DNA of 64,000 bases from Escherichia coli (GTDB lineage: Bacteria; Pseudomonadota; Gammaproteobacteria; Enterobacterales; Enterobacteriaceae): NCBI RefSeq assembly GCF_045037415.1, contig NZ_CP173438.1; one strand, given 5' to 3'. Every line of letters starts with the position of its first letter. Positions within the stretch are counted from its first letter, which is position 1. Below the pieces are notes generated by a model. That model was given only the letters and a program-made list of their open reading frames with translations, was not told where the DNA came from and made no database searches. Position numbers and translations under genes: made by a program. Shown here one piece after another: positions 17,103-20,713 of the stretch.

Positions 17103-18644
17103 ATGCGTAAGTTATCAACCGCCGAGACACTGGCGGCGCAAATTCAGGACGGCGCAACCATTGCCATTAGCGGCAACGGCGGCGGCATGGTGGAAGCTGA
17201 CCATATTCTGGCCGCCATTGAAGCGCGCTTTCTGCAAACCGGACACCCGCGCGATCTGACATTAATCCACTCGCTGGGTATTGGCGATCGCGACAGCAAA
17301 GGCACTAACCGTTTTGCTCACGCCGAAATGCTCAAACGCATTATTGCCGGACATTTTACCTGGTCGCCCAAGATGCAGGAACTGGTGAAAAACAATGCTA
17401 TTGAAGCCTACTGTTTCCCTGGTGGCGTAATTCAGGCACTGCTGCGGGAGATCGGTGCCGGACGTCCGGGGCTTTTTACCCACGTTGGGCTGGGATCGTT
17501 TGTTGATCCACGCAATGGTGGCGGTAAGTCGAATGAATGCACTACCGACGACCTGGTAGAACTGATTGAAATCGACGGTGAAACCAAACTTCGTTATCGC
17601 CCTTTCAAAGTGGATTACGCGATTTTGCGTGGCACTTATGCCGATCCACGAGGCAACGTTAGCCTCGAAGAAGAAGCGATTGATATGGATAGCTATTCGA
17701 TGGCGCTGGCAGCACACAACAGCGGCGGCAAAGTGTTCGTACAGGTACGCGATGTGCTGGAAGCAGGTACCATTGAACCACGTCGGGTCAAGCTACCAGG
17801 AATTCTGGTTGATGGCATCGTTGAGCACCGCGAACAACCGCAAACCTATCTTGGTGGTTACGACCTGACCATCAGCGGTCAACATCGCCGTCTAAGTTCT
17901 AACGACGCTATTGAACTGGTTAGTCATCCGGTGCGTCGCCTGATTGCCCGTCGGGCAGCGCGGGAACTGGTGGCAGGCGCTTCAACCAACTTTGGCTTTG
18001 GTATTCCCGGCGGTATTCCTGGGGTTGCGCTGCGCGAAGGCGTGCCTTATCAAAGTTTGTGGCTGAGTGTAGAACAGGGTGTGCATAACGGCATGATGCT
18101 TGATGATGCTCTGTTCGGCTGCGCCCGTAACGCCGATGCCATTATTCCATCACTCGATCAATTTGAATTCTACAGTGGCGGCGGCATCGATATCACCTTC
18201 CTCGGCATGGGAGAGATGGATCAATACGGTAACGTCAACGTATCCCATCTCAATGGCAATCTGATTGGCCCCGGCGGATTTCTCGAAATTGCACAAAACG
18301 CCCGTAAAGTGGTGTTTTGCGGTACGTTCGACGCCAAAGGCAGCAAGATTGATGTAACGCCAGATGGCTTGCATATCGCCCAGTCAGGTCAAATCCCTAA
18401 ACTGGTTACCCAGGTGGAAAAAATTACTTTTAGCGCCGCCTACGCACAGCAAAGTGGTCAGGAAGTGTTGTATATCACTGAACGCGCAGTATTCCAGTTA
18501 ACGGCAGAAGGCGTTGAATTAATTGAAATCGCGCCGGGTGTGGAGATTGAGCGCGACATTCTGCCGTATATGGCCTTCCGTCCGATTATCAGGCACCCAC
18601 GTCTGATGGAAAGTAGCCTGTTTATGCCAATGGAGGATGCATGA
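17103..18644 (+). CDS. Family I acyl-CoA:carboxylate CoA-transferase (YdiF / propionate-CoA-transferase-like, fused subunits)
   Basis: 513 aa; blocks GIGDRDSKG, GSFVDPRNGGGKSNECT and ITERAVFQLTAEGVELIEIAPGVEIERDIL parallel the remembered E. coli YdiF sequence. Confidence 0.8.
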   Translation: MRKLSTAETLAAQIQDGATIAISGNGGGMVEADHILAAIEARFLQTGHPRDLTLIHSLGIGDRDSKGTNRFAHAEMLKRIIAGHFTWSPKMQELVKNNAIEAYCFPGGVIQALLREIGAGRPGLFTHVGLGSFVDPRNGGGKSNECTTDDLVELIEIDGETKLRYRPFKVDYAILRGTYADPRGNVSLEEEAIDMDSYSMALAAHNSGGKVFVQVRDVLEAGTIEPRRVKLPGILVDGIVEHREQPQTYLGGYDLTISGQHRRLSSNDAIELVSHPVRRLIARRAARELVAGASTNFGFGIPGGIPGVALREGVPYQSLWLSVEQGVHNGMMLDDALFGCARNADAIIPSLDQFEFYSGGGIDITFLGMGEMDQYGNVNVSHLNGNLIGPGGFLEIAQNARKVVFCGTFDAKGSKIDVTPDGLHIAQSGQIPKLVTQVEKITFSAAYAQQSGQEVLYITERAVFQLTAEGVELIEIAPGVEIERDILPYMAFRPIIRHPRLMESSLFMPMEDA

Positions 18645-20713
18645 GTCAGCTTGATGACACCATCCTTGATGCACTGACGCACGTTACTTTCCCAAAGGGT
18701 TTTGCACAGGCAGAACCCGCATGGGTTGTCACGGTTGACGGCGTTGATTACCCACTCTGGAAAACAGATGCCCTGGTAGTCGGCAGTGGTGCAGCCGGGC
18801 TACGTGCAGCTGTGGAACTTAAACGCCGCCAGCAAAATGTGTTAATCGCCACCGCCGGGTTATATATGGGGACGTCGGCATGTTCTGGCTCTGATAAACA
18901 AACACTGTTTACCGCCGCTACTGCGGGCAACGGCGACAACTTCACCAAACTGGCAGAGGCACTGGCGAGCGGTGGGGCGATGGATCACGACACCGCTTAT
19001 GTTGAAGCGGTAGGTTCTCTGCACACTCTTGGCGGGTTGCAATATCTTGGTCTGGAATTACCGGAAGATCGCTATGGCGCGATTCTTCGTTATCAAACCG
19101 ACCATGACGAAGCCGGGCGTGCAACCTCGTGTGGGCCGCGTACCTCAAGGTTAATGGTGAAAGTGCTGCTGGAAGAAGTACAGCGTCTTGCTATCCCAAT
19201 GTTGACCAGTGCAACAGTGATTAAACTGCTGCATCAGCGTGACGAAAACGGTGAAGACCGTGTGGCGGGGGCAATCCTCGCGACCGGTCATCGCGCCCAT
19301 AACCCATGGGGGCTGGCAATTGTGACTGCGCCCAATGTGGTACTGGCAACAGGAGGGCCTGGCGAGCTTTATCGCGACAGTGTTTATCCACACAAATGTT
19401 TCGGCTCGCTGGGTCTGGCGCTGGAGGAAGGTCTGACGCTAACCAATCTGACTGAAAGCCAGTTTGGTATCGGCACACCGCGCAGCACGTTTCCGTGGAA
19501 TTTGTCCGGCACCTATGTGCAGGTGATCCCGTATATCTATTCCGTAGATGCTGAGGGTAACGAGTATAACTTCCTCGCGGATTACTATCGCACCACCCAG
19601 GAGCTAGCTTCAAACATCTTCCGTAAAGGCTATCAGTGGCCGTTCCACGCCACGCGGGTAATGGATTTTGGCTCCAGCTTGTTAGATATGGCAGTAGCGC
19701 AAGAGCAGCAATCAGGGCGTCAGGTATTTATGGATTTCAATCGCAATCCTGAAGCGGTGCCGGGTGACCTGCCCTTCTCATTAGATCGACTGGACGACGA
19801 CGTTCGCACGTATCTGGAAAATAACGACGCTCTGGCACCATCGCCCATCGAACGCCTGCAACGAATGAATCCGCTGTCTATCTCGCTGTATAAGATGCAC
19901 GGTTACGATCTCACCACGCAGCCATTGCAGTTTGCCATGAATAATCAGCACATGAATGGCGGCATTGAAGTCGATATCTGGGGACAAACATCTCTGCCCG
20001 GTTGTTTTGCGGTGGGGGAAGTTGCTGGCACACACGGCGTCACCCGACCTGGCGGCGCGGCATTGAATGCCGGGCAGGTTTTTGCTGTTCGTCTGGCACG
20101 TTTTATTGGTTGCACGCAAAAGCGGAATATTGATGGAGATATAGCACAGCTGGCAGCTCCGGCACTGGCTTCTATAAGAGAGATCATTACTCAGGCGCAC
20201 GATAACGGGACCGGGATGCCGTTGTCGGTTGTGAGAGAAAAAATTCAGGCACGAATGTCTGACCATGCGGGATTTATTTGCCATGCCGATAAAGTCCGAC
20301 GCGCCACTCGTGATGCCCTGCTATTGAACGAATTTGTCCAACGACATGGATTGGCAATCAAACATGTGGGTGAAGTTGCCGAGCTGTTTATGTGGCGGCA
20401 TATGACGCTGACTTCTGCCGCGGTATTAACACAATTAACGCATTATATTGATGCTGGTGGTGGTAGCCGTGGGGCGCGTATGGTTATTGATCCACAAGGC
20501 AAATGCCTACCACAAACTCGTCGCGGCGCAAAAGAAGAATGGCGTTTTCGCTCTGAACTCGCTGAAGACAAAAATCACAAATTAACAATTCAATATTCGC
20601 AAGGTTCTTTTATTACCGAAGTAAAGTCTTTACGTATGCAACCGTGTATTAACGGTATTTACTTTGAAAAAAACTGGCCAGACTTTTTAAAGGGAGACAT
20701 TTACACACAATAA
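18641..20713 (+). CDS. FAD-dependent oxidoreductase (fumarate reductase / succinate dehydrogenase flavoprotein-like or KstD-like)
   Basis: 690 aa; FAD dinucleotide motif VVGSGAAGLRAAVEL near the N-terminus; its ATG overlaps the CoA-transferase stop (ATGA), indicating translational coupling. Confidence 0.75.
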   Translation: MSQLDDTILDALTHVTFPKGFAQAEPAWVVTVDGVDYPLWKTDALVVGSGAAGLRAAVELKRRQQNVLIATAGLYMGTSACSGSDKQTLFTAATAGNGDNFTKLAEALASGGAMDHDTAYVEAVGSLHTLGGLQYLGLELPEDRYGAILRYQTDHDEAGRATSCGPRTSRLMVKVLLEEVQRLAIPMLTSATVIKLLHQRDENGEDRVAGAILATGHRAHNPWGLAIVTAPNVVLATGGPGELYRDSVYPHKCFGSLGLALEEGLTLTNLTESQFGIGTPRSTFPWNLSGTYVQVIPYIYSVDAEGNEYNFLADYYRTTQELASNIFRKGYQWPFHATRVMDFGSSLLDMAVAQEQQSGRQVFMDFNRNPEAVPGDLPFSLDRLDDDVRTYLENNDALAPSPIERLQRMNPLSISLYKMHGYDLTTQPLQFAMNNQHMNGGIEVDIWGQTSLPGCFAVGEVAGTHGVTRPGGAALNAGQVFAVRLARFIGCTQKRNIDGDIAQLAAPALASIREIITQAHDNGTGMPLSVVREKIQARMSDHAGFICHADKVRRATRDALLLNEFVQRHGLAIKHVGEVAELFMWRHMTLTSAAVLTQLTHYIDAGGGSRGARMVIDPQGKCLPQTRRGAKEEWRFRSELAEDKNHKLTIQYSQGSFITEVKSLRMQPCINGIYFEKNWPDFLKGDIYTQ

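Follow-up and report, generated by a model that had tools for sequence, protein, structure and literature searches.

A predicted SdhA/FrdA-fold flavoprotein in a strain-variable, putative organic-acid operon of Escherichia coli

Described enzymes and operons closest to the locus

In gut bacteria, the enoates of shikimate, itaconate, urocanate and cinnamates are reduced by dedicated reductases of the FAD_binding_2 family, and a signal peptide is found in most of the respiratory reductases of this kind that have been characterised (bioRxiv 10.1101/2022.12.26.521950). Here we describe a flavoprotein with the same domain, encoded in a 64,000-nucleotide stretch of E. coli DNA (contig NZ_CP173438.1 of RefSeq assembly GCF_045037415.1), which we call the window and to which coordinates refer unless another locus is named. 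Its gene, at 18641–20713 on the plus strand, encodes a soluble protein of 690 amino acids with a predicted SdhA/FrdA fold and a flavin adenine dinucleotide (FAD) predicted to be bound non-covalently; no signal peptide can be read from its sequence, so the protein would be cytoplasmic. It is the fifth gene of a six-gene, TetR-controlled organic-acid operon: behind a divergently transcribed TetR gene come the genes for a short-chain dehydrogenase/reductase (SDR), a xylose-isomerase-like TIM barrel, an enoyl-CoA hydratase of the crotonase type (ECH), a CoA-transferase (CoAT), the flavoprotein and a transporter of the major facilitator superfamily (MFS). The operon is strain-variable in E. coli, and the flavoprotein belongs to an active-site-divergent, uncharacterised clade of SdhA/FrdA proteins, which makes it a solid lead, if no surprise to a specialist.

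The enzymes that the protein would most resemble in its working are the soluble FAD_binding_2 enoate reductases, among which we compared Fcc3 of Shewanella, the urocanate reductase UrdA, the methacrylate reductase, the Vibrio acrylate reductase (ARD), the Klebsiella NADH:fumarate reductase (FRD) and the 'flavin reductases' of gut bacteria. In these enzymes a variable capping domain sets the substrate range, and their genes are regulator-adjacent and substrate-induced (bioRxiv 10.1101/2022.01.20.477176; bioRxiv 10.1101/2022.12.26.521950). Motif I of Fcc3 and of the urocanate, methacrylate and acrylate reductases consists of Arg402, His504 and Arg544 (Fcc3 numbering), while in the Fcc3-type reductases Motif II binds the second carboxylate and Motif III is the proton channel (bioRxiv 10.1101/2022.01.20.477176). 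Like them, the E. coli flavoprotein is a single polypeptide with FAD predicted to be non-covalent and a carboxylate anchor by the flavin; unlike them, it has no haem, FMN_bind or Old Yellow Enzyme (OYE) domain and no signal peptide, and it has a helical domain of the SdhA type. In a profile alignment only two of the three Motif I residues have counterparts (H437 and R469), and the equivalent of Arg402, together with Motifs II and III, is absent; judged from this alignment, the flavoprotein appears to depart from the canonical site more than do those urocanate, methacrylate and acrylate reductases that have been characterised. In the Klebsiella enzyme an OYE-like domain serves as the module that oxidises NADH, and the same role has been proposed for it in the Vibrio acrylate reductase (bioRxiv 10.1101/2022.01.20.477176); this module recurs fused to, or encoded beside, distant members of the flavoprotein family.

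With FrdA and SdhA of complex II (E. coli 1kf6, human 8dyd) the flavoprotein shares the fold, the Rossmann GxGxxG, the His/Arg pair and the 'SRGA' motif, but the identity is only 17–18%, T78 stands where the covalent-FAD His would be, and there are no partners of the FrdB, FrdC or FrdD type. NadB resembles it in being stand-alone, in its non-covalent FAD (predicted for our protein), in the superfamily fold and in supplying some of the best sequence matches; it differs in that the flavoprotein lacks the catalytic His and Arg of the capping domain and is encoded in a catabolic operon rather than among genes for NAD biosynthesis.

At the level of the operon, the closest described arrangements are of the cai and acu type, in which CoA is used catalytically to hydrate or dehydrate a 3-hydroxy acid or enoate. 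CaiB/CaiD/CaiA (carnitine), AcuN/AcuK (for the AcuN-AcuK acrylate pathway see PMC5651017) and the ydi cluster of K-12 follow the same operon logic as our locus: a transporter, a CoA-transferase, a crotonase and a flavoenzyme acting on a C=C bond. The layout of ydiN-ydiB-aroD-ydiF-ydiO in K-12 (1772512–1778347; locus L097) is likewise the same, with an MFS transporter, a dehydrogenase, a dehydratase, YdiF and a flavoenzyme. In those systems, however, the enzyme acting on the C=C bond has the acyl-CoA dehydrogenase fold (CaiA, YdiO) or is a medium-chain dehydrogenase/reductase (AcuI), and it works on the CoA ester, whereas the E. coli operon has a flavoprotein with the SdhA fold and a carboxylate anchor, and an SDR and a TIM barrel in addition.

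Gene, fold and active site of the flavoprotein

The start of the flavoprotein gene at 18641 is not mis-called, and the 690-residue protein is the only possible reading of the frame. This codon is the first start after the upstream in-frame stop; reading of the sequence found no in-frame ATG, GTG or TTG between it and the Rossmann motif VVGSGAAG (residues 46–53); and orthologues with 52–59% identity begin to align at residues 1–8. The RefSeq call (WP_000080320.1, 'FAD-dependent oxidoreductase') is identical to the reading frame. The TGA that ends the CoA-transferase frame (17103–18644) occupies 18642–18644, so the two genes have an ATGA in common, and the translational-coupling junction (18632–18644, plus strand) consists of a GGAGG at 18632–18636 followed by that ATGA at 18641–18644. 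Klebsiella oxytoca and Salmonella enterica show the same overlap of 4 bp, and in Sodalis ligni a single nucleotide separates the two genes. A reading of this DNA made earlier from its letters and open reading frames (hereafter, the sequence-only reading) had described this overlap and had allowed that it might be an artefact of the start call; the overlap is genuine. That reading had also found no iron-sulfur or membrane-anchor subunit nearby, and indeed the roughly 8 kb to each side contain no such gene. Some E. coli records (P0003, P0030, P0273, P0274 and P0276) show fused reading frames, either CoAT-flavoprotein (1078 and 1043 amino acids) or ECH-CoAT (711 and 678 amino acids); these are probably stop-loss or frameshift variants at very tight gene junctions.

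Pfam recognises a single domain in the protein, FAD_binding_2 (PF00890; residues 43–475 to model positions 1–414, E = 1.2e-27), and no characterised family claims it: all NCBIfam scores fall far below their cut-offs, the best being 125 bits against 718 for TfrA, 100 against 453 for nadB (TIGR00551) and 82 against 567 for sdhA_frdA (TIGR01812); PRK09231 reaches 44 against 854. Its sequence matches in the PDB are NadB, SdhA and FrdA at E about 1e-8 and Fcc3 at E = 3e-6 in the N-terminal half, the other soluble enoate reductases being absent from the sequence matches. An AlphaFold model, built with 40 family members in the alignment, has a pLDDT of 92.1 and a pTM of 0.93. The top 50 Foldseek matches listed from the PDB are SdhA, FrdA, NadB and AprA (E = 1e-30 to 1e-21, target TM-score up to 0.81); the best structural matches, to SdhA and FrdA, run over all domains (TM 0.62–0.80, 14–19% identity), and the close matches in AFDB50 are all nameless, 'FAD-binding protein' or 'oxidoreductase'. 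The model thus predicts the four-domain SdhA/FrdA fold, with FAD-binding, capping and helical domains, and the protein belongs to the SdhA/FrdA/NadB superfamily and to nothing narrower. The sequence-only reading had suggested a soluble, stand-alone protein of the FrdA or KstD class: this agrees with what we find as far as solubility, independence and FrdA are concerned, but no KstD, a type without the SdhA helical domain and with a Tyr/Gly catalytic set, is among the 50 PDB matches listed, and the one match to a KstD-like desaturase, to ChcC2, is confined to Rossmann residues 42–83 (E = 4e-5). Its further suggestion, that the protein exceeds FrdA by about 90 residues through an extended C-terminal region, does not hold. 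FrdA 3–567 aligns to residues 39–650, the unaligned C-terminal tails are alike (40 residues against 35 in FrdA), and the protein owes its extra length to some 38 residues at the N-terminus and some 27 within the capping domain.

We mapped the active site by hhalign profile alignment to E. coli FrdA, an alignment whose capping-domain part is of low confidence. The two carboxylate anchors of FrdA, H355 and R390, correspond to H437 and R469, both of them invariant among 40 diverse family members. By contrast, H44 of FrdA, which carries the covalent 8-alpha-histidyl FAD, corresponds to T78, and the family consensus at this site (GTSxNTGSDKQ) is without a His; H232, which contacts the second carboxylate, corresponds to an invariant G276; T244 and E245, which serve the second carboxylate and the proton channel, correspond to Q294 and V295; and the proton donor R287 corresponds to S346 or to a gap. 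On this mapping, the site appears to keep only half of the canonical fumarate-reductase machinery. Some homologues are named 'succinate dehydrogenase flavoprotein subunit', and with the overall fold of SdhA and FrdA this could suggest a spare paralogue of fumarate reductase, succinate dehydrogenase or L-aspartate oxidase. We give this idea almost no credence, because other residues stand in place of the covalent-FAD His, of those for the second carboxylate and of the proton-shuttle Arg; the curated scores for sdhA_frdA and nadB are also far under their cut-offs, the iron-sulfur and anchor subunits are missing, and the identity to any solved homologue does not exceed the 14–19% given above.

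Genomic contexts and the probable reaction

The flavoprotein belongs to a large nameless clade with no characterised member. An exhaustive HMMER search returned 3281 clusters at 50% identity with E <= 1e-3, of which 419, taken here as the clade, have E <= 1e-30; full-length members of the family are 36–55% identical, and data with one genome per species contain at least 596 family loci. Many anaerobes are represented in the family (Phycisphaerae, Clostridia, Lentisphaerae, Enterocloster, Victivallis), and the clade includes the gut anaerobes Enterocloster, Victivallis, Subdoligranulum and Succinatimonas.

To describe the neighbourhoods we clustered the genes found within 7 kb at 80 non-Escherichia loci, using a greedy call of reading frames that recovered the full-length flavoprotein at 72 of them. 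The SDR is the commonest neighbour of the family across phyla: proteins of its PRK12745 type occur at 29 of the 80 loci and are directly adjacent at 12. They are followed by Gfo/Idh/MocA oxidoreductases (20 loci), GMC oxidoreductases (19), OYE or OYE-GltD proteins (17, among them L063, L065 and L076, with direct adjacency at five of the 17), PfkB kinases (16), aldolases like that for 2-keto-3-deoxy-6-phosphogluconate (KDPG; 13) and the TIM barrel (7); CoA-transferases of the YdiF type are seen at four, and at more once clusters of the Rhizobium type are counted, in which CoAT and ECH lie 10–12 kb upstream in the same co-directional run. The wider context of the family is therefore one of carbohydrate- or polyol-type oxidoreductases. 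As regards electron input, P0154 (1084 amino acids) is a natural fusion of an N-terminal Oxidored_FMN (OYE) domain with a distant member of the family, and this fusion and the OYE neighbours suggest an NAD(P)H-oxidising partner. In Sodalis ligni (locus L092) the operon finishes with a flavodoxin gene at 14987–15436, 13 bp beyond the MFS gene, and this flavodoxin might supply the flavoprotein with electrons; no flavodoxin gene stands at this position in E. coli, Klebsiella or Salmonella.

Is the flavoprotein, then, tied to CoA chemistry? The sequence-only reading had coupled it to the CoA-transferase and had placed it where an acyl-CoA dehydrogenase usually stands. If it acts directly on a CoA thioester, as an acyl-CoA dehydrogenase or enoyl-CoA reductase would, the pathway would run from CoAT to the flavoprotein, ECH and SDR. 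Several observations speak for this: the ATGA overlap with the CoAT gene is kept in three genera; CoAT, ECH and SDR are all present in the operon, which contains no acyl-CoA dehydrogenase gene; the ydi cluster of K-12 is built on the same plan, the acyl-CoA dehydrogenase YdiO coming after YdiF; and non-orthologous YdiF-type CoAT and ECH (38–45% identity) recur near family members in five other lineages, namely Rhizobium, Devosia, Rhodobacteraceae, Desulfobacterales and Clostridia. We nevertheless regard action on the thioester as doubtful, for the following reasons: (i) orthologues with 55–59% identity occur in operons that have neither CoAT nor ECH, as in Brenneria (TetR, then SDR-TIM-flavoprotein) and in Pseudescherichia, Mangrovibacter and Phytobacter (TetR, then SDR-GFO-TIM-MFS-flavoprotein, where GFO is the Gfo/Idh/MocA oxidoreductase). 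(ii) Conversely, the orthologous SDR-TIM-ECH-CoAT module exists without the flavoprotein, in Pseudovibrio beside a TetR gene; Azospirillum has MFS-ECH-CoAT-DUF993-TIM, and elsewhere the orthologous ECH-CoAT occurs as a bare pair. Orthologues of the E. coli CoAT, at 62–66% identity, are found in many phyla and are far closer to it than YdiF is (39%). (iii) The His/Arg carboxylate anchor is invariant in all contexts. (iv) At one Desulfobacterales locus two bona fide acyl-CoA dehydrogenases flank the flavoprotein gene, which hence replaces nothing there. (v) The CoAT-linked flavoproteins have no distinguishing extra domain or length, measuring 689–703 amino acids throughout. The fold itself is unrelated to that of acyl-CoA dehydrogenases, and the evidence from gene contexts is mixed.

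The operon is best understood as three freely combining modules: SDR with TIM barrel, ECH with CoAT, and the flavoprotein by itself. Its association with CoA chemistry is genuine and has recurred, yet it is not obligatory. The coupling to the CoA-transferase thus stands for this locus as a tight one but not as an intrinsic pairing, and the position of an acyl-CoA dehydrogenase stands as operon logic, by analogy with ydi, but probably not as a simple replacement, since the flavoprotein and the CoAT module each occur without the other.

A DUF993 (PF06187) protein, for which a full-text search returned no literature, is encoded beside orthologous ECH-CoAT and a TIM barrel in Azospirillum and in GCA_963723645.1 (11622–12788 in locus L088 and 6798–7958 in locus L089).

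The explanation we favour, to which we give a probability of roughly 0.45, is that the flavoprotein is a cytoplasmic, single-subunit oxidoreductase with non-covalent FAD that interconverts an enoate and the saturated acid on a free hydroxylated carboxylic acid. The MFS protein would import this acid; SDR and TIM barrel together would turn a hydroxyl into a carbonyl by oxidation and isomerise or eliminate beside it; the YdiF-type CoAT and the crotonase would interconvert a 3-hydroxy acid and an enoate through transient CoA esters, in the manner of CaiB/CaiD and AcuN/AcuK; and the flavoprotein would handle the C=C bond of the free acid. Here the substrate carboxylate would be held on the H437/R469 pair, hydride would pass between N5 of the FAD and the beta-carbon of the substrate as the alpha,beta-unsaturated acid and the saturated acid are interconverted, and the proton donor would be something other than the canonical Arg, with K329, Y292 and R360 among the candidates. 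A free carboxylate is the probable positioning group because the anchor is invariant in members with and without CoAT neighbours, and a CoA-specific site is unlikely because the whole set of invariant residues is common to members whose operons have no CoA-transferase. An ene-reductase or desaturase acting on the CoA ester or on the free acid had been proposed from the sequence alone; for the free acid, before or after CoA transfer, this continues to be the best reading, and it is the thioester that the carboxylate anchor disfavours.

The direction is somewhat more likely to be reductive, with the flavoprotein as an enoate reductase and electron sink, than oxidative, given the many strict anaerobes in the family, the OYE neighbours, the P0154 fusion and the Sodalis flavodoxin. 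As for the substrate, a polyhydroxylated carboxylic acid is suggested by the predicted type of the MFS protein (D-galactonate/hexuronate), by the TIM barrel, whose nearest relatives of known function are, by weak matches, an inosose isomerase and ketose epimerases, and by the sugar-type neighbours of the family, that is, Gfo/Idh/MocA and GMC oxidoreductases, PfkB kinases, and aldolases for KDPG or fructose bisphosphate (FBP).

Several points weigh against this explanation. The proton-donor Arg (R287 in FrdA, R402 in Fcc3) and the proton channel are absent, S346, Q294 and V295 standing in their places, so that the chemistry could differ from enoate reduction; the low-confidence part of the active-site alignment has to be counted here as well. 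The E. coli protein lacks a domain for electron input, and a partner gene is likewise absent from the operon. The tight coupling to the CoA-transferase fits an enzyme acting on a CoA ester equally well. Finally, the alphaproteobacterial orthologues occur in aerobes, beside ABC transporters for neutral sugars, in clusters that look more like an oxidative sugar pathway than an enoate sink.

The last point leads to another possibility, namely that the flavoprotein oxidises a C-OH or C-N bond alpha to a carboxylate, as NadB does or as SdhA does with malate, within an oxidative pathway for a sugar acid or cyclitol, and passes the electrons to quinone, O2 or another acceptor. L-aspartate oxidases are among the best NCBIfam and PDB sequence matches, all of them below the cut-offs, and NadB too is stand-alone; the alphaproteobacterial LacI clusters combine a sugar ABC transporter with two GMC and two Gfo/Idh/MocA oxidoreductases, a PfkB kinase and an FBP aldolase; and enterobacterial relatives pair the flavoprotein with a Gfo/Idh/MocA oxidoreductase, a TIM barrel and an SDR. 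We consider this unlikely, however: the residues of NadB equivalent to H232 and R287 of FrdA are missing, strict anaerobes dominate the family, the fused or adjacent OYE-type NAD(P)H modules suit a reductase better, and such operons already contain several dedicated hydroxyl dehydrogenases.

One such cluster, on plasmid pRCCGE531c of Rhizobium sp. CCGE531 (697339–716411; loci L085 and L086), is a co-directional run of 15 genes in the order LacI-GFO-CoAT-ECH-aldehyde dehydrogenase-ABC (four genes)-GMC-GMC-GFO-flavoprotein-PfkB kinase-FBP aldolase. It resembles the end of the inositol route (IolC-, IolJ- and IolA-like) plus CoA chemistry, and looks like a sugar or cyclitol pathway.

A bolder version of the favoured explanation, and a long shot in our estimate, is a so far unrecognised, CoA-cycling pathway in the cytoplasm that would reduce a hydroxylated acid, either alicyclic or derived from a sugar; the flavoprotein would then be the first of a new class of SdhA-fold enoate reductases whose proton donor is not an arginine. 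That gut and lactic bacteria reduce hydroaromatic acids has been observed for decades, and as part of this same long shot the candidates would be acids of the quinate or shikimate type, converted to dihydroshikimate or dihydroxycyclohexanecarboxylate. The quinate/shikimate idea has no direct genomic support, since tblastn detected no homologue of K-12 YdiB, AroD or YdiN in any of the more than 90 fetched loci. Were this bolder version true, it would provide the genes for hydroaromatic-acid reduction and a function for several hundred clusters common in anaerobes of gut and sediment. Whatever the substrate, its identity would reveal a further niche in the gut ecology of E. coli, one that varies between strains and is based on a nutrient or an electron sink, and would show how the SdhA fold works without the catalytic arginine.

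The operon and its chromosomal site

The regulator, of the TetR/AcrR family, is encoded divergently on the minus strand at 13804–14451 (the mechanically called frame reaches a TTG at 14523) and corresponds to the K-12 pseudogene ytfA; Klebsiella, Salmonella, Sodalis and Pseudovibrio have the same regulator, with TetR_N and TetR_C_29 domains, at the same place. In the intergenic region between it and the SDR gene lies a palindrome able to form a stem-loop, ATCAACCA-N6-TGGTTGAT (14574–14595), a likely candidate for the TetR operator.

The structural genes are all on the plus strand, and from SDR to MFS the gaps between them are 9, 9, 9, -4 and 92 bp. The SDR (14664–15455) belongs to the PRK12745 family (NF009386, 420 bits against a cut-off of 250), which has no characterised member; the structures closest to it are 4da9 and 4one, neither of them with a function assigned. 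The TIM barrel (15465–16307; AP_endonuc_2, PF01261, E = 8e-37) matches 3qc0 and 3ju2, both from structural genomics, at E about 1e-85, IolI and ketose 3-epimerases weakly, and, in NCBIfam, IolO and hydroxypyruvate isomerase weakly; its probable role is that of a metal-dependent isomerase, epimerase or eliminase working beside a carbonyl. We rejected 3-dehydroshikimate dehydratase and inosose dehydratase as specific assignments for it, the matches being to IolI and ketose epimerases and weak. The translation of the ECH gene (16317–17093) contains both catalytic Glu motifs, GGGIELALCCD and NPEVMLG. The CoAT (17103–18644) is a class I enzyme of the YdiF/propionate-CoA-transferase type (2ahu, E = 8e-116) and keeps the catalytic Glu, its E324 aligning with E333 of YdiF. 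The MFS protein (20806–22083), of the anion:cation symporter type (TIGR00893, E = 1e-93) and 42% identical to the transporter of the Azospirillum ECH-CoAT-DUF993-TIM cluster, is by its family a likely importer of an organic acid. Directly after its stop codon a terminator-like hairpin (22093–22129, plus strand), with a 15-bp stem and a T-run, likely marks the end of the operon. Full-text searches with the protein accessions, the neighbours and the product names returned no literature on this operon.

An 8.3-kb query around the flavoprotein gene finds at least a partial match in 5415 of 5426 complete E. coli genomes, and the operon is complete (at least 80% of the query covered) in 3097 of the 5426, about 57%. 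It lies between ytfB and rplI, and the same syntenic site holds it in Klebsiella oxytoca and Salmonella. We therefore rejected the idea of a horizontally acquired island, the shared site pointing instead to an old locus of the Enterobacteriaceae with differential loss. In K-12 the site retains the TetR remnant ytfA, a pseudogene, and yjfZ, the operon being otherwise lost. A catabolic operon present in more than half of the sequenced E. coli, in the K. oxytoca group and in some Salmonella has been overlooked because K-12 lost it.

Two further features were noted downstream. Between the operon and rplI, in a patch of low GC content (0.435–0.46), a gene for a HipA-family toxin is split on the minus strand into 22226–22987 and 22987–23493, annotated by RefSeq as a frameshifted pseudogene, next to a seemingly intact gene for its helix-turn-helix antitoxin (23496–23987, minus strand). 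About 4 kb past rplI lies the L-ascorbate operon ulaABCDEF (26500–33000, minus strand), whose nearness to our operon is kept in Klebsiella and Salmonella and probably reflects merely a conserved chromosomal order.

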